Shown here: positions 2,803-62,612 of the stretch, in pieces
Layout: the number at the start of each line of letters is the position of its first letter
How positions within the stretch are numbered: the first letter of the stretch is position 1
Assembly: GCA_963614215.1 (NCBI GenBank)
Contig: CAVECB010000001.1
Coordinates: 38,604 to 102,603, forward strand
Length of the DNA stretch: 64,000 bases
Origin: Ruthenibacterium lactatiformans
GTDB lineage: Bacteria > Actinomycetota > Coriobacteriia > Coriobacteriales > QAMH01
Direction of reading: 5' to 3'
Notes under the pieces: model-generated
Told to the model about the DNA's origin: nothing
The model's database searches: none
The model's input: only the letters and a program-made list of their open reading frames with translations
Translations under genes and position numbers: made by a program

Positions 2803-4302
2803 ATGGACGCCGGTTTCGCAACTTTTCTCGTATCCCTTGCCGCTGCAGGCGCCGCTCTCGTGGCGGCGGTCGCGGCGATTGCCGCCTGCGCGCAGGTGAA
2901 GGCTCTCAAGTCCCGCGACGACACCGAGGCCGCCTTGGCCGACCTGCGAGAAGACCTCGCCGCCAAGATAGAGGAGAGCGCGCGCCTTTCCCAGGCCTTG
3001 GTAAAGGAGCGCTGCGACACTCTCGACGCCGCCTTGTCTGCCGACAATAGAAGGCTCGAGGAGAAGTTCGAGGCCTCGCGCCGCGAGAGTGCCGAGACGA
3101 CGCGCAAAAACAACGAGGCCGTGGGCGCCGAGCTGGAGAGGATGCGCGGGATCGTCGGCGAAAAGCTCACGCAGCGCCTGGCGGAGCAGTCCCGCGAGCT
3201 GCGCGATCACCTCGACAAATTTGACGGGCGCTTCGCCGGCTTCTCGAAGCAGATTCAAGGGTTCCAAGAGCAAATGACCAAGGGCTTGGGCGATGTGCAA
3301 AACACGGTCGGCGCCCAGCTGAAGGACATACGCGAAGACAACGGCAAACAGCTCGAGAAAATGCGCGAGACCGTCGACGAGAAACTTTCCAAGACTTTAA
3401 ACGAGAGGCTGAACTCGTCGTTTACCCGCGTGAGCGAGCAGCTGGAAGCCGTGCACAAGGGGCTGGGGGAGATGAAGAGCGTCGCCCAGGACGTCGGCGG
3501 CCTCAAGCGGGTGCTTTCCAACGTCAAGACGCGCGGGGTGCTGGGCGAGGTGCAGCTCGGCGCGATTTTGGGCGACATCCTCACCGCCAACCAATACGAT
3601 GAAAACGTCGCGACTAGGCCTGGCAGCCGCGAGCGCGTCGAGTTCGCGGTGAAGATCCCCGTCGAGGACGGCTTCATCTACCTCCCCATCGACGCGAAGT
3701 TTCCCGGTGAGGCCTACGACCAGCTGCAGGTTGCGCTGGAGACAGGCGACAAGGCCGCGGTCGACGCCGCGCGCAAGACGCTCGAGCGGCGCATCGAAGG
3801 CGAGGCGAAAGACATCAGCAGCAAGTACATCTCCGTGCCGCAGACGACAAACTTCGCAATTATGTTTCTGCCCTTTGAGGGGCTGTATGCCGAGGTGGTC
3901 AGCCGCCCGGGGCTGATCGAGCACCTGCAGCGCGACTACAAGGTCAACGTCGCCGGGCCTTCGACGATGGCGGCGATACTCAACAGCTTGCAGATGAGCT
4001 ACCAGACACTGGCTCTGCAAAAGCGTGCCGACGAGATTGCGCAGATACTCTCGGCGGTCAAGGCCGAATTCCCCAAGTACCAAAAGGAGCTCGACCGGGC
4101 GCTCAAGCAGATCAACACGGCGGGCAAGACCGTGGAGGGGATCATCACCACGCGCACCCGGGTCATTTCGCGCAAGCTCGACGGCGTGGCGGACATGCAA
4201 GACCCGCAGGCCGCCGAGAGGCTGCTGGGCATCGGCGAGGGTGCCGACGCCGGAGCTGGCGACGAGCCCATCCCGACCGACGCCGTCGTCGACGACGCAT
4301 AA
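2803..4302 (+). CDS. rmuC: DNA recombination protein RmuC
   Basis: ORF 2395-4302 trimmed to ATG 2803 (MDAGFATFLVSLAAAG, an N-terminal TM helix). A long coiled coil is followed by an RmuC-type C-terminal domain (TRGVLGEVQLGAILGDIL, YLPIDAKFP, NFAIMFLPFEGLYAEV). Confidence 0.85.
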   Translation: MDAGFATFLVSLAAAGAALVAAVAAIAACAQVKALKSRDDTEAALADLREDLAAKIEESARLSQALVKERCDTLDAALSADNRRLEEKFEASRRESAETTRKNNEAVGAELERMRGIVGEKLTQRLAEQSRELRDHLDKFDGRFAGFSKQIQGFQEQMTKGLGDVQNTVGAQLKDIREDNGKQLEKMRETVDEKLSKTLNERLNSSFTRVSEQLEAVHKGLGEMKSVAQDVGGLKRVLSNVKTRGVLGEVQLGAILGDILTANQYDENVATRPGSRERVEFAVKIPVEDGFIYLPIDAKFPGEAYDQLQVALETGDKAAVDAARKTLERRIEGEAKDISSKYISVPQTTNFAIMFLPFEGLYAEVVSRPGLIEHLQRDYKVNVAGPSTMAAILNSLQMSYQTLALQKRADEIAQILSAVKAEFPKYQKELDRALKQINTAGKTVEGIITTRTRVISRKLDGVADMQDPQAAERLLGIGEGADAGAGDEPIPTDAVVDDA

Positions 4303-4329
4303 GGCCCCAAGCCCCGTCTGGCCGCCTTT

Positions 4330-4357
4330 CAAGCGTAAATTTTTGCGCTTGATTTTG
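4330..4357 (+). terminator. candidate intrinsic terminator after rmuC
   Basis: A CAAGCG-N10-CGCTTG hairpin is followed by ATTTTG. The stem is weak. It is embedded in short direct repeats arranged A-B-B-A (TTTCAAGCGTAAA at 4327 and 4365; TTTTGCGCT at 4341 and 4353). Confidence 0.3.
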
Positions 4358-4495
4358 CGCTCGATTTCAAGCGTAAACGCAATGGCGAATGCATGTTGTT
4401 CCTCGATACCACCCAAAAGCCCAAGTCGCGGAATCTCGGCATTCATTCATCAGCAGGAAGATATCTCCATGCGCCCACCAGCGCGAATCCACCGA

Positions 4496-6524: not shown

Positions 6525-6570
6525 AGCGTTCCTCGCGTTTCGGGCGGGCGGTTTTTGGCGTGGGGAAATA

Positions 6571-6656
6571 CCACGATTCGTCAGTAGAGAGTACCATAAT
6601 TCATCAGTAGAAAATGCCATAATTCATCAGTAGCACGTACCATAATTCATCAGTAG
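6571..6656 (-). repeat. four phased 23-bp direct repeats (iteron/operator-like) upstream of the ATPase gene
   Basis: The - strand 17-mer CTACTGATGAATTATGG occurs at 6656-6640, 6633-6617 and 6610-6594. A degenerate copy, CTACTGACGAATCGTGG, lies at 6587-6571. The period is exactly 23 bp and the 6-nt spacers are not conserved. Confidence 0.9.
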
Positions 6657-6762
6657 GAAGAGGCGATGATTGGCGCACGCAGGCATTGACCTTAAATTTT
6701 TCCACGGATACTGTGCTTTTCGCGGGTGGGCGACGTGACGCGACGCTCGCGTGCCACTTCGA

Positions 6763-38448: not shown

Positions 38449-39364
38449 GATTCTCTATTTCCTCAAAGAGTCCATCGTCAGCTCGCGCCGCAACCTCGGC
38501 ACGACCATCGGTGGCATAGTCACGATTTTCCTCGCACTGCTCATGGTCGGCTTGGCCATCATGATGTCGATCATGATCGGCAACGTCGCCACCTCGTTCG
38601 AAAACGAGATCAGCGTGCGCCTCTACATCTCCGACGACGCTTCCGACGAGCAGATCCAGCAGTTCACCACGTACTTGAACTCGCTGAAATCCGACGAGGG
38701 CAACGTCGCCGACGTCGAGTTTAAAGACAAGGATGCCGTGCTGAAGGACTTCCAGGCACAGACGACGAACAACCCCGACATCGTCAACCAGCTCGACGGC
38801 AACCCGTTGCCGCGCACCTACGTGCTCACCTTGCGCAACACGCAGAAGGTGCAGCAGACCGTGGACAAGGTGCTTGCCAACGAGACCTTCAAGTCCATCG
38901 CCGACAACGCCAACGACCCGTCGGATTCGGTGAAGTACGGCCAGGACACGGTCGCGAAGCTGTTCAAGGTCACGAACCTCGTGCGCTACGGGTGCGCCGT
39001 CGCGGTCATCTTGCTCATCTTCATCTCGCTCGTGTTCTTGAACAACACAATTCGCCTGGCCATCCTGGCGCGCCGCCGCGAGATTTCAATCATGCGGCTT
39101 GTGGGCGCGTCCAACGGCTTTATCCGCGGGCCGTTTCTTATGGAGGGCGCGCTGCAGGCCTTGGTGGGCGCAATCTTTGCCATCATCGCGATTGCGTGCA
39201 TCCGCGTCTTTGCGATGCCCAGCTTGGAGAACTTCGTCCAGTTCCTGCCGCTCACCGTCGAAGACGGCGCCTACGGCATGATCTATCTTGTCCTCATCGT
39301 CGGCGGCATCCTCATCGGCATGCTGGGTTCGGCCATCGCGATGAGGCGCTATCTGAAGGTCTGA
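38441..39364 (+). CDS. ftsX: cell-division permease-like protein FtsX
   Basis: The gene overlaps ftsE by 8 nt. It has an N-terminal TM helix, an extracytoplasmic domain and three C-terminal TM helices (FtsX topology). Confidence 0.85.
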   Translation: MSKILYFLKESIVSSRRNLGTTIGGIVTIFLALLMVGLAIMMSIMIGNVATSFENEISVRLYISDDASDEQIQQFTTYLNSLKSDEGNVADVEFKDKDAVLKDFQAQTTNNPDIVNQLDGNPLPRTYVLTLRNTQKVQQTVDKVLANETFKSIADNANDPSDSVKYGQDTVAKLFKVTNLVRYGCAVAVILLIFISLVFLNNTIRLAILARRREISIMRLVGASNGFIRGPFLMEGALQALVGAIFAIIAIACIRVFAMPSLENFVQFLPLTVEDGAYGMIYLVLIVGGILIGMLGSAIAMRRYLKV

Positions 39365-40795
<1,431 letters not shown>

Positions 40796-40819
40796 GGCGA
40801 ACGCTGGGGCGAAGCGCAG

Positions 40820-41431
40820 GTGGCGGCGGCGACGAGAAAACCGAGCAAGAGGCCCAAGCCCTCGCAGGACCTGAAGGAGGCTGCGAAGGAGGGGGCGAAG
40901 GAGGCCGCGAGGAAAGGCGGCGCCGACGCCACGGAAAAGGATGCCGGCGCGCGCAAGCCGCATGGGCGCAAGGGCAAGAAGCCGCGCGAGAAAAAGCGGG
41001 GCAAGAAGGAGAAGAAGGCCGAAAAGGAAAAGAAGGAGAAAAAGGACCCGACGCGCAGGCGCTTTGTCGTCGTCGGGTCCATCGTCGTCGTGCTCGTGTG
41101 CGTGGGGCTTTTGTATCCGGCCGGCCGCACCTATTACGAGTCCGTGCGCACCGACCAGCGCAGCGCTGCGCAACTTGCGGCGATAGAGGCGCGCAACGCC
41201 GAGATTCAGCGGCAAAACGACTATCTCCAGACCGACGAGGGCATCGAAGACCAGGCGCGCAAGGACGGCGGGTACGTGCGCGAGGGCGAGGAAGGCGTCG
41301 TCATCACCAACGGTGGCAGCTCGACGGACAGGAACACGCAGTTGCCCGACCAGGTGGATCTCGACCGGATACACGCGCCCAGCACGTGGTATTACGATAT
41401 CCTAGACGCGTTTTTCTTTGTGCACGTCTAG
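40820..41431 (+). CDS. septum formation initiator family protein (FtsB/DivIC-like) with a Lys-rich N-terminal tail
   Basis: GTG start, a single TM helix (FVVVGSIVVVLVCVGLL), then a coiled coil and GYVREGEEGVVI, typical of DivIC/FtsB. The position after eno is conserved. Confidence 0.7.
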   Translation: MAAATRKPSKRPKPSQDLKEAAKEGAKEAARKGGADATEKDAGARKPHGRKGKKPREKKRGKKEKKAEKEKKEKKDPTRRRFVVVGSIVVVLVCVGLLYPAGRTYYESVRTDQRSAAQLAAIEARNAEIQRQNDYLQTDEGIEDQARKDGGYVREGEEGVVITNGGSSTDRNTQLPDQVDLDRIHAPSTWYYDILDAFFFVHV

Positions 41432-41527
41432 CGCGCTGTCCGGCGCGGCGCGTGAGACGGGCGCGCGGTGCCGCAAGGCGCACAACAGGACGCACGACAT
41501 GCGAGACGGACGTGCGGCATATGGCAC

Positions 41528-41612
41528 GGGGGTGTGGCGGAATCGGCAGACGCAGCGGACTTAAAATCCGCCGCCGCAAGGCATGAGGGTTCGAACCCCT
41601 CCACCCCTACCA
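41528..41612 (+). tRNA. tRNA-Leu (anticodon UAA)
   Basis: The 85-nt sequence folds by hand. Acceptor GGGGGTG/CACCCCT (G1-U72), anticodon arm GCGGA-CTTAAAA-TCCGC, a long variable arm, T arm GAGGG-TTCGAAC-CCCTC, and an encoded CCA. Confidence 0.9.
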
Positions 41613-42089
41613 CTTTCAAAAACGATGCAGGGTTCGAACCCTGCGATGGCGCGACAGCCCGGTGGGCTGTCGCGGGCCGAGGCGCGCGCCCGCGCGCGAG
41701 GCCTGCGGCGATGCGCAGCGCCCGCAGGGCGCGAGCAGGCGCCTCGAACCCCTCCACCCCTACCACTTTCAAAAACGATGCAGGGTTCGAACCCTGCGAT
41801 GGCGCGACAGCCCGGTGGGCTGTCGCGGGCCGAGGCGCGCGCCCGCGCGCGAGGCCTGCGGCGATGCGCAGCGCCCGCAGGGCGCGAGCAGGCGCCTCGA
41901 ACCCCTCCACCCCTACCACTTTCAAAAACGATGCAGGGTTCGAACCCTGCGATGGCGCGACAGCCCGGTGGGCTGTCGCGGGCCGAGGCGCGCGCCCGCG
42001 CGCGAGGCCTGCGGCGATGCGCAGCGCCCGCAGGGCGCGAGCAGGCGCCTCGAACCCCTCCACCCCTACCACCACCTCCACCCCTACCA
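41591..42089 (+). repeat. three identical 153-bp tandem units, each made of the tRNA-Leu 3'-terminal 22-mer plus a 131-bp spacer, followed by a 4th 22-mer and a 5th partial copy
   Basis: TCGAACCCCTCCACCCCTACCA starts at 41591 (inside the tRNA), 41744, 41897 and 42050. The spacers are identical by eye and by the exactly repeating ORF-track translations. A partial copy, CTCCACCCCTACCA, lies at 42076-42089. Confidence 0.95.
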
Positions 42090-42196
42090 ACTCCCCCTTT
42101 CCCCTTTGGGAAACTTGCACCCCGCGCCAGCGCCCCGGTGCCGTACAATGGGGGGCGTCTCAAGTAGGTTTTTTGCTTGCAAGGAGGGGTGCAACC

Positions 42197-42592
42197 ATGG
42201 GTAAAGAAGAAAGGCACGGGATTCCTGACTATCGGGTGGCGGCGTTTGCCTCGTTGGACTTAAAGCAGCACATGACCGACGCTGCGGAGGGCTTCCACTT
42301 CGAGAAGAGCGTCCAGAGCATCGACTGGAAGGTGAAGCACGAGAAGGGCTACTACGTCGCGGAAGGCGAGCTGCGTGTGCCGTTCAAGATGTATTTCACC
42401 GCGCAAGACGACAAGGAAGATGCGCTGTTCGTCGAGCGCGTCGTCTGCAACGGAAAGCGCGTATTCGACGCTCGTGTGAGCGAGGACGAAGACGAAGACG
42501 ATCCGAACTTCGGCATCGACGTGGACAGCGTCCGCGCCGAGAGCTTCGTCCGCTACCAGAGCAACATCGGGGGTCGCAACAAGCAGATATAG
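42197..42592 (+). CDS. hypothetical protein (131 aa)
   Basis: AAGGAGG lies 9 nt upstream of ATG 42197. This is the tail of the artefactual ORF 41468-42592. The stop is 1 nt before the polyprenyl synthase ATG. I recognise no motif. Confidence 0.65.
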   Translation: MGKEERHGIPDYRVAAFASLDLKQHMTDAAEGFHFEKSVQSIDWKVKHEKGYYVAEGELRVPFKMYFTAQDDKEDALFVERVVCNGKRVFDARVSEDEDEDDPNFGIDVDSVRAESFVRYQSNIGGRNKQI

Positions 42593-62537: not shown

Positions 62538-62612
62538 GGGCGATTGGCGCAGCGGTAGCGCAGCTGCTTTACACGCAGAAGGTCGCAGGTTCGAACCCTG
62601 CATCGCCCACCA
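62538..62612 (+). tRNA. tRNA-Val (anticodon UAC)
   Basis: The 75-nt sequence folds by hand. Acceptor GGGCGAT/ATCGCCC, anticodon loop TTTACAC, T arm GCAGG-TTCGAAC-CCTGC, and an encoded CCA. TATAAT lies 15 nt upstream. Confidence 0.9.

Follow-up and report, generated by a model that had tools for sequence, protein, structure and literature searches.

Cis-mobilizable elements (CIMEs) are integrase-less remnants, flanked by the attachment (att) sites attL and attR, that are found at tRNA 3' ends and are often accreted with integrative and conjugative elements (ICEs) or integrative and mobilizable elements (IMEs) (PMC5704250). The T-loop is a recognised sublocation of tyrosine integrases, with repeats of 20-25 bp (bioRxiv 10.1101/2020.11.02.365908), and tycheposons integrate serially at one tRNA, where partial tRNAs serve as separators (bioRxiv 10.1101/2020.12.28.424599). 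Some casposons insert at tRNA-Leu genes, in their 3' end, with a portion of the tRNA duplicated as the target-site duplication (TSD), and their tandem arrays have one TSD in common (PMC4779613). Here we analysed a 64,000-nt stretch of contig CAVECB010000001.1 from Ruthenibacterium lactatiformans (Coriobacteriia in the GTDB lineage), hereafter the window, in which the tRNA-Leu(UAA) gene is followed by three identical 153-bp units, each ending in a copy of the last 22 nt of that tRNA. The array is probably, if by no means certainly, a local and strain-variable amplification of one member of a small family of hairpin-rich, non-coding, non-autonomous mobile elements that reside behind tRNA genes. 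Full-text literature searches yielded no published description of this element architecture.

At every locus of the family the same anatomy was observed: a linker (about 10-60 nt), a tRNA T-arm copied in inverted orientation (12-18 nt exact, with or without part of the acceptor strand), a core made of the hairpins P2, P3 and P4, and a direct duplicate of the last 17-22 nt of the adjacent tRNA. The whole unit is non-coding, measures about 110-200 bp and always lies on the tRNA-sense strand, directly downstream of the tRNA. Like a CIME, it has no integration genes, can stand in tandem with another element at the same tRNA (in the related locus L010 an island lies beside the unit) and regenerates its target, which permits accumulation. 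A flanking repeat is present as well, 22 nt long in the window and 17-22 nt in every family member. CIMEs, however, are kilobase-sized and have a recognisable ICE or IME parent, whereas the units span 110-200 bp and no parent was found; comparison with the related loci, IMG/VR and phage and plasmid collections revealed no kinship to the ends of an integrase-bearing element. A further difference is that here the same core occurs at five tRNA species, each time with the matching 3' end, together with an inverted T-arm copy and covarying hairpins. The likeness to tycheposons and other T-loop islands includes the target (the 3' half of a tRNA), a repeat of 17-25 nt that starts in the T-loop, the use of several tRNAs per family, successive integrations split only by partial tRNAs, and tandem-repeat junctions that exist as population variants. 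The duplicate begins at T-loop positions 55-60 throughout, in agreement with one of the three places that integrases use in a tRNA gene (anticodon loop, T-loop or 3' end). In contrast to the units, these islands are kilobase-long and bring their own integrase and cargo, and neither an inverted T-arm nor a conserved core of hairpins is reported for any of them; the units have a duplicate with a variable right end and no linked integrase.

With casposons the units share the tRNA-Leu 3'-end target, the partial-tRNA duplication and the tandem arrays. Casposons, however, are large and self-synthesising (Cas1 and PolB), with terminal inverted repeats (TIRs) of their own and a lineage-fixed TSD (14 bp in M. 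mazei); those of the bacterial family 3 are intergenic. Neither a Cas1 casposase nor PolB, casposon-like TIRs or a fixed TSD of 14-15 bp was found in the units, which have no coding capacity and a variable duplication. With miniature inverted-repeat transposable elements (MITEs) the units share a small size, the lack of coding capacity, strong self-folding and, presumably, mobilisation in trans, and the two arms of a unit can be viewed as TIRs of 6-10 bp. However, MITEs have element-specific TIRs, a short TSD of fixed length and many dispersed copies, whereas here the arms derive from tRNAs, the duplication varies from 17 to ~70 nt (duplicated blocks of 20 to ~50-70 nt) and a genome has one or two tRNA-linked loci. 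The many dispersed copies typical of MITEs, repetitive extragenic palindromes (REPs) and bacterial interspersed mosaic elements (BIMEs) were seen neither in the 64-kb window nor in 188 kb of related loci. The attP of CTX-phi-type integrative mobile elements exploiting Xer (IMEX) contains two inverted target-like sites ~90 nt apart, and its single-stranded DNA (ssDNA) folds into a mimic of the target. The units resemble it in topology only: an inverted target-like site, a structured spacer of ~100 nt and a direct partial site that restores the distal half of the target, to which perfectly paired hairpins with DNA-type triloops and the tandem arrays can be added. The units differ in that a tRNA T-arm takes the place of dif, there is no phage genome, and no sign of Xer or of an ssDNA stage was seen. 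Of these known kinds, CIMEs and tRNA-targeting islands come nearest to the units, followed by MITEs and casposons. The element lacks defining features of each; in our assessment it is probably a non-autonomous one that targets tRNA genes.

The array at tRNA-Leu(UAA) and its variation between strains

The 22-mer TCGAACCCCTCCACCCCTACCA was found exactly at 41591, 41744, 41897 and 42050 and at no other site in the 64 kb with up to 3 mismatches (0 expected by chance). Tandem Repeats Finder (TRF) reported a period of 153 over positions 41591-42072 (3.2 copies, 100% matches, zero indels), a repeat search returned three 176-nt copies of 100% identity, and the 131-nt spacer is identical at 41613, 41766 and 41919. 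A partial copy of the repeat, the 14-nt CTCCACCCCTACCA, lies at 42076-42089, and the 18-nt palindrome at 41627-41644 reads on the minus strand as a hairpin followed by ATCGTTTTTG. Together with the ARAGORN and Rfam predictions of the tRNA, these searches reproduced every structural element listed in a first-pass annotation of the sequence: the tRNA-Leu(UAA), the four 22-mer sites, the 153-bp period, the identical spacers, the partial copy, the palindrome and both hairpins (41651-41673 and 41718-41732). The dense structure that it had ascribed to the spacer was also borne out, as the fold of the unit was more stable than that of 200 out of 200 shuffled sequences on both strands (z-scores of -3.9 and -4.8). 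No plausible open reading frame (ORF) is present in the unit, and in the window we found neither a terminator between the tRNA and unit 1 nor a promoter-like site within the array. The distal end of the array (42054-42092) reads ...CCCCTACCA-CCA-CCTCCACCCCTACCA, that is ...ACCA-CCA-CC..., and is not a product of clean tandem duplication or slippage. The features are collected in Table 1.

Table 1. Features of the tRNA-Leu(UAA) array and the tRNA-Val(UAC) gene, in window coordinates
Feature	Position	Strand	Remarks
tRNA-Leu(UAA) gene	41528..41612	+	ARAGORN; Rfam tRNA 57.6 bits; last 22 nt (41591-41612) are the first direct-repeat copy
Unit 1	41613..41765	+	linker, inverted T-arm hairpin, three-hairpin core, 22-nt tRNA 3'-end duplicate (41744-41765)
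Unit 2	41766..41918	+	same sequence as unit 1; all sub-features at +153
Unit 3	41919..42071	+	same sequence as unit 1; sub-features at +306; distal 22-nt duplicate at 42050-42071
Extra CCA, then 15-nt partial repeat CCTCCACCCCTACCA	42072..42089	+	shared with L004 only
Linker CTTTCAAAAA	41613..41622	+	sole A/T-rich part of the unit; on the minus strand a T-run behind HP1
5' arm/HP1, CGAT-GCAGGGTTCGAACCCTGC-GA	41623..41646	+	reverse complement of the tRNA-Val(UAC) T-arm plus part of the acceptor strand
P2 hairpin CGCGACAGCCC-GGT-GGGCTGTCGCG	41650..41674	+	11 bp, triloop
P3 hairpin GGCC-GAG-GCGCGC-GCCC-GCGCGC-GA-GGCC	41675..41703	+	4-bp outer stem; internal loop of the GA/GA type; inner stem and loop variable
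Junction TGCGGCGATGCGCA	41704..41717	+	signature of core subfamily A; also in the tRNA-Glu elements L025, L026, L043-L047
P4 hairpin GCGCCC-GCA-GGGCGC	41718..41732	+	C-GCA-G triloop
Core 3' tail GAGCAGGCGCC	41733..41743	+	abuts the duplicate; signature of subfamily A
tRNA-Val(UAC)	62538..62612	+	no element of its own; apparent source of the inverted 5' arm in Leu-linked units

For comparison between strains, ten related loci were chosen from assemblies that encode exactly the same 131-aa protein as the gene downstream of the array. One unit is present in L001, L002, L003, L005, L008, L009 and L010, two are present in L004 and L007, and three, as assembled, in the window, while L006 has neither the tRNA nor the array. 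All strains possessing the Leu locus keep at least one unit, and no precisely empty site was found within any species. Since the junction between a repeat and the next linker requires at least two units, the amplification is real, and private variants common to both copies of a two-unit assembly (a 7-A run in L007, CCCTGT in L004) indicate that it was local and took place more than once. To judge from the assembled sequences, the array is a real copy-number polymorphism of one, two or three units among close relatives, of the kind that the first-pass annotation had suggested looking for, and the exact number of three rests on the assembly. That the tandem copies are a mis-assembly of a single-copy sequence is very hard to believe: although they are perfectly identical, the 153-bp unit exceeds typical assembler k-mers (which makes short-read copy numbers uncertain) and the contigs L026, L036 and L037 end within arrays, the repeat-to-linker junction recurs in independent assemblies from different samples, both copies carry the private variants of L004 and L007, arrays exist at tRNA-Val (L030) and tRNA-Glu (L026) too, and the tandem of two different units in L032 is not explicable by collapse or expansion. 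Unit number varies at three tRNA loci in total, namely Leu (1, 2 or 3), Glu (1 in L046 and at least 2 in L026) and Val (2 in L030).

The distal repeat copies are mutated in L001 and L007, as expected if selection acts on the tRNA-proximal copy only. Among strains, the linker varies (CTTGAAAAAA; one A-run indel), and single nucleotide polymorphisms (SNPs) in the hairpins fall in loops (one in P3, and GCA to GTA in P4). In a comparison of nine strains, the spacer contained 0.053 segregating sites per site, its seven variable sites lying in the linker or in loops or giving G-T pairs. The corresponding values were 0.17-0.19 for third codon positions in two flanking genes, 0.06 for those of the 131-aa gene, and 0.10 and 0.53 for the downstream and upstream intergenic regions, respectively; tRNA-Leu had 1 segregating site. 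The unit is thus ~3-fold less polymorphic than synonymous sites in two of the three neighbouring genes, and its uniformity may be kept either by selection or by turnover through re-insertion or gene conversion. Between the DivIC-like gene and the tRNA, the spacer of 96 nt (41432-41527) is hypervariable, with 51 of 96 sites segregating among strains.

In L006 (1-6000) and L014 (1-1960), tRNA-Leu and the entire array are missing, with a breakpoint at about window position 42106. A block of the defence or toxin-antitoxin type stands upstream of the 131-aa gene instead; it contains GmrSD, PIN_3, AAA_14/DUF4143 and an IF-2B-family gene, and, in L014, TacA1 and GNAT. Homology restarts at TTTGGGAAACTTGC, ~17 nt past the last repeat, and the junction has no att copy.

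A conserved hairpin core behind tRNA genes of Coriobacteriia

We scanned 185,579 species genomes and Joint Genome Institute (JGI) metagenomes for P2. The hairpin lay just 3' of a tRNA at four of the six loci from the genome scan and at seven of the 16 from the metagenome scan, in which the remaining nine hits were chance matches, mostly within coding sequence. Genuine matches were confined to Coriobacteriia-type contigs (one of them binned in an Oscillibacter metagenome-assembled genome, MAG), and all were tRNA-linked except L024. The resulting family comprises about a dozen independent loci, all from metagenome assemblies. Units were found behind tRNA-Leu(UAA) of another species (L037), tRNA-Leu(CAA) (L021), tRNA-Glu(UUC) (L025, from the same genome or MAG as L011, and L026), tRNA-Val(UAC) (L022, also recovered as L028, L035 and L038, and L030/L036) and tRNA-Ser(CGA) (L032); only one genome had two P2 hits, at two loci. 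A covariance model run with filters off detected only the three array copies in the window, and over the 188 kb of related loci it detected the tRNA-linked copies and L024. A dispersed REP-type element with no link to tRNAs, the outcome that would have spoken against the first-pass annotation, is therefore not what the model found, L024 excepted. A BLAST search of the 131-nt spacer against phage and plasmid collections, as proposed there, gave no match, nor did a search of P2 against the 2.9 M viral contigs of IMG/VR. Rfam 15 at the gathering threshold returned tRNA hits only, and nothing credible appeared for the window at E<=10 or for six other loci at E<=1.

The exception, L024, contains a P2+P3 module (2734-2987) with no tRNA anywhere in its 8-kb locus. 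The module lies inside a 254-bp segment that has 18-bp inverted repeats at its ends, the left one tandemly triplicated (CCCCACTGTCATCCCGG x3).

The P2 stems are sequence-identical in 10 of 11 aligned family members, whose hosts range from 58 to 69% GC; a further strain, L044, has a single stem mismatch. In P2 of unit 2 of L032, four pairs are altered and compensated on both sides, and the observed covariation was reached by none of 500 shuffles. The P3 outer stem exists in five versions, the P3 inner stem in seven and the P4 stem in seven, all of them paired. Over all versions (two to seven for each stem), the stems comprise 292 Watson-Crick pairs, one G-T pair and no mismatches. Single-sequence minimum free energy (MFE) folding gave the same hairpins in six of seven cores, and in six of seven the + strand was the more stable one. 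The loop of P4 is GCA in most members, and the tRNA-sense strand shows purine-rich, GNRA-like loops and a tandem GA/GA internal loop. Such a scarcity of wobble pairs, like the dominant C-GNA-G triloops, is seen more typically in DNA hairpins, so that the molecule adopting the structure could be ssDNA or RNA.

The left boundary of the duplicate falls in the T-loop at all loci, while the right one is abrupt and lies 0, 4, 5, 44 or ~30-47 nt after the CCA, giving duplicated blocks of 20, 22, 22, 26, 66 and ~50-70 nt. The sister species L011 and L012 (84% protein identity) share the arrangement of the array; their duplicate runs 44 nt past the CCA and carries the T-loop variant of that species, as does the arm of L011. 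For 8 of 10 inverted arms, the best match was the adjacent tRNA or an orthologue of it. Because the T-loops of tRNA-Val, tRNA-Leu(CAA) and L011 are not palindromic, the 5' arm can be recognised as truly inverted, and an origin of the arm as a sense-orientation minihelix was rejected on these grounds. The two tRNA-derived arms are of unequal length and pair over 6-10 bp, or imperfectly over up to ~23 bp at tRNA-Glu.

Several observations point to movement of the element. Core subfamily A (junction GGCGAYGCGCA, tail GAGCAGGCGCC) occurs at tRNA-Leu(UAA) and tRNA-Glu(UUC), both in one genome (L011, L025), and subfamily B occurs at tRNA-Leu(CAA) and tRNA-Ser(CGA); the core subfamily tracks the host lineage rather than the tRNA. 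The palindrome of the window's 5' arm, which the first-pass annotation had likened to a tRNA T-arm, proved to be no generic look-alike but part of an inverted fragment of the window's own tRNA-Val(UAC), matching the reverse complement at 23 of 24 positions (one gap, 18 nt exact), as against only 13 nt for tRNA-Leu. The arm of L030 fits the tRNA-Val of another lineage better than its own. These two cases show that the arm is carried along, while the duplicate is always cognate. Two different cores stand in tandem behind one tRNA-Ser in L032, and a second, truncated unit lies further downstream in L021. In L021 a ~210-bp insert with 44-bp terminal inverted repeats (4153-4360), which looks like an unrelated MITE, splits this truncated unit in the P2 loop, just upstream of infC.

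The tRNA-Glu/PNP locus exists in several states. The outgroup (L051) has the tRNA followed by a canonical terminator only, L025 and L044-L046 have one unit, L026 has at least two, and L047 has a core without P2. In L048 and L050 the core is absent and the two arms are fused into a hairpin, and in L043 and L049 one unit is followed by such a coreless hairpin. An equivalent outgroup for the Leu locus was sought among more distant homologues of the 131-aa protein, which had no upstream tRNA.

These data also bear on the idea that the unit is not mobile but a resident structured RNA, a functional part of the tRNA transcription unit. It might act as a small RNA derived from the 3' trailer, as a U-tract-poor terminator or insulator before the next gene, or as a mimic or decoy of the tRNA 3' end, in which the tRNA-derived arms (with their 6-10-bp pairing and a single-stranded ...NCCA tail) do the work and copy number sets the dose. 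We regard this as less likely than mobility, although a good deal speaks for it: the constant position directly downstream on the tRNA-sense strand, the tandem GA/GA and GNRA-like loops specific to the + strand and its greater stability in six of seven cores, strain SNPs that avoid stems or yield G-T on the + strand, a spacer with about one third of the synonymous-site polymorphism of two of the three flanking genes, the window array without a terminator between the tRNA and unit 1, an element that stands in the in-group in place of the outgroup's canonical terminator, and its retention across species at the Leu and Glu loci. Obligatory co-transcription, however, is difficult to reconcile with the canonical intrinsic terminator that separates the element from its tRNA in L030, L032 and L037 and likewise the second unit of L021; the array of the window, moreover, showed no promoter-like site. 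The single G-T among 293 stem pairs and the C-GNA-G triloops are more DNA-like, the core or P2 has been lost while the locus persists (L047, L048), and no Rfam family matched. A Val-derived arm at a Leu gene and two unrelated tandem cores at one tRNA would moreover be left unexplained.

Proposed insertion into the T-loop and competing explanations

For a mobile element of this kind, we infer insertion by a recombination event that has one fixed end in the T-loop of a tRNA gene. The tRNA would stay intact, with the tRNA-proximal copy of the 3' end being the functional one and the other copy becoming the distal repeat; on this integration model, the distal 22-nt duplicate of unit 3 would be the displaced original 3' end of tRNA-Leu. 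The regenerated T-arm target may admit further copies at the same site, and the flanking repeats, and later whole 153-bp units, would permit unequal recombination or slippage, giving arrays of one to three identical units. The sequence-conserved P2 is probably what a trans-acting enzyme, encoded at some other place, recognises. The most conventional candidate would be a T-loop-class tyrosine integrase, but none was identified. The 5' arm can be a relic of an earlier tRNA site, as the comparison of loci showed.

A number of results weigh against this explanation. No linked enzyme was found: an all-against-all BLASTP comparison of ORFs across the loci returned syntenic housekeeping genes only, no protein family is common to non-syntenic loci, and there was no viral, phage or plasmid match. 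A homology search with an integrase remnant in L022 retrieved the same pseudogene fragments only and no intact relative. The junction between the core and the T-loop lacks a T-stem-like half-site and wanders over positions 55-60, which is loose for a tyrosine recombinase, and the right boundary of the duplicate is variable. A classical fixed attP alone cannot provide one core with cognate 3' ends at five tRNAs, nor does an attP explain the inverted 5' arm. Species with 82-92% protein identity keep the element at their orthologous Leu and Glu loci, and this retention, with the low polymorphism relative to synonymous sites in two of three flanking genes, could reflect a host function instead of mobility. 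Finally, the sample of loci is small, and a manual parse underlies the stems of P3 and P4; from a MAFFT alignment, RNAalifold retrieved P2 only, because the variable hairpins misalign.

The first-pass annotation had interpreted the repeats as attL/attR scars around a 131-bp mini-cargo. In its plainest form, the 131 bp would be what was left when an integrase-borne island between attL and attR decayed, later amplified by unequal crossing-over. The att-site geometry of the 22-nt repeats, from the T-loop to the CCA, does correspond to a recognised sublocation, and the att-like repeats and the amplification withstood the analysis; a scar or cargo peculiar to this locus did not, as the spacer proved to be a structured module found behind five tRNA species. 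Decay of this kind is known to produce CIMEs (PMC5704250), and it would fit with the direct repeats that begin in the T-loop, the copy-number variation, the integrase island that L010 has in the same tRNA and the remnant of an integrase beside a core in L022. Nevertheless, we consider a plain scar improbable, because the same three-hairpin core, including a 25-nt P2 that differs in a single copy only, would not be left behind at five tRNAs of different genera by independent decays. The stems covary, the polymorphism of the spacer is below that of synonymous sites in two of the three flanking genes, and no similarity to phages, plasmids or viral contigs was found. The island in L010 (1-660) consists of the C-terminus of a tyrosine integrase (a weak Pfam Phage_integrase match, below the curated cut-off) and a 52-nt partial tRNA-Leu spanning anticodon loop to CCA, followed by one unit. 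It is a classical island in the same tRNA with a different, longer att. Thus a tyrosine integrase, of the sort that the first-pass annotation had proposed looking for, does occur at this tRNA in L010, but its 52-nt att does not account for the 22-mer. The L022 region 1090-1500 is heavily rearranged: the 3' remnant of an integrase, situated between tRNA-Val and the core, is fused to P2. The region also holds a tRNA-Val 3' end that has degenerated, a second unit with a break in its P2 loop, and an integrase segment copied in palindromised form (AACTGGGACACCAT-ACCGGGC-ATGGTGTCCCAGTT).

Another explanation is template switching during replication, for which no enzyme is required. The nascent strand would jump from a donor element into the T-loop of another tRNA by way of microhomology in the near-universal T-loop/T-stem sequence (GGTTCGAAYCC), and quasi-palindrome correction would keep the hairpins perfect and adapt the inverted arm to the nearby tRNA. 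Variation of the first junction within the T-loop and of the second junction, hairpins that are fully Watson-Crick whatever their sequence, the 13 nt shared by the Val-type arm of the window and the tRNA-Leu T-arm, an arm and a duplicate in L011 that both follow the T-loop SNP of that species, the palindromised segments of L022 and the failure to find an enzyme are all compatible with such a process. We give it little credence, however, since events that should be rare have reached at least five tRNA species and hit the same tRNA again, the sequence conservation of P2 across hosts of very different GC is left unexplained, and no intermediate products were seen.

A different possibility, and a rather doubtful one, is that the target is picked by nucleic-acid pairing and not by protein recognition alone, with the inverted arm as a homing guide to tRNA T-arms. 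The jump from tRNA-Val to tRNA-Leu (the two have 13 nt in common there) would thereby be accounted for, and P2-P4 would be a scaffold recognised as ssDNA or RNA by some enzyme. A version with an RNA intermediate would draw on the tRNA-like ...NCCA tail in which the unit ends, on a duplicate as long as a tRNA 3' fragment cleaved in the T-loop, and on the terminal copy of the window, whose ...ACCA-CCA-... reads as though a second CCA had been added prior to copying.

Other candidates were rejected. A CRISPR-like array was discarded on account of its identical 'spacers' and the absence of cas genes. IS200/IS605 elements or elements of the TnpB-omega-RNA type insert precisely without duplication, and the restored tRNA would be self-targeted. 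A tRNA-like gene on the minus strand has no acceptor pairing in the window. P2 itself as the integration site was dismissed, as the P2-loop breaks in L021 and L022 run into unrelated sequence and the 3' half never reappears.

Chromosomal surroundings and significance

The array is flanked by ordinary chromosome. Upstream lie genes for FtsE, FtsX and enolase and a DivIC-like gene, and downstream an orphan gene for the 131-aa protein, a polyprenyl synthase gene and genes for PcsB-like hydrolases; Pfam scans of the neighbouring genes returned housekeeping functions only. No integrase was found within ~6 kb on either side of the array, the only span checked. The 131-aa protein (42197-42592) has no Pfam domain and seven homologous clusters of 64-95% identity among 5.8 billion proteins; its gene is a clade-restricted orphan, always followed by the polyprenyl synthase gene. 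A 762-aa frame on the minus strand (39086-41374), antisense to the enolase and DivIC-like genes, gave no Pfam hit and was rejected as a spurious high-GC ORF. A 23-bp tandem repeat (4.2 copies, 81% matches) occupies 6565-6660 in a stretch of lower GC. The rarity of UUA was confirmed, TTA making up 2 of 229 Leu codons in nine genes, but nothing in the data ties the array to regulation of tRNA-Leu(UAA), for which the bldA tRNA had been offered as an analogy.

tRNA genes are the main landing sites of islands and prophages, and partial tRNA copies are routinely read as att scars. The units described here imply that several tRNA genes can be colonised by a very small non-coding module on its own, which leaves the tRNA intact, with a cognate spare 3' end and a copy number that varies between strains. 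They will mislead predictors of islands and att sites and the annotation of tRNA fragments, and they break short-read assemblies; they also offer a strain-level marker in gut Coriobacteriia. They pose the question of the enzyme by which the invariant P2 hairpin and the T-loop are recognised. In the host, the spare tRNA 3' end and the stable hairpins may act on the rare-codon tRNA-Leu(UAA) through its termination, processing or dosage. Targeting guided by the inverted arm, if true, would constitute a new principle of site selection, of interest for engineering.

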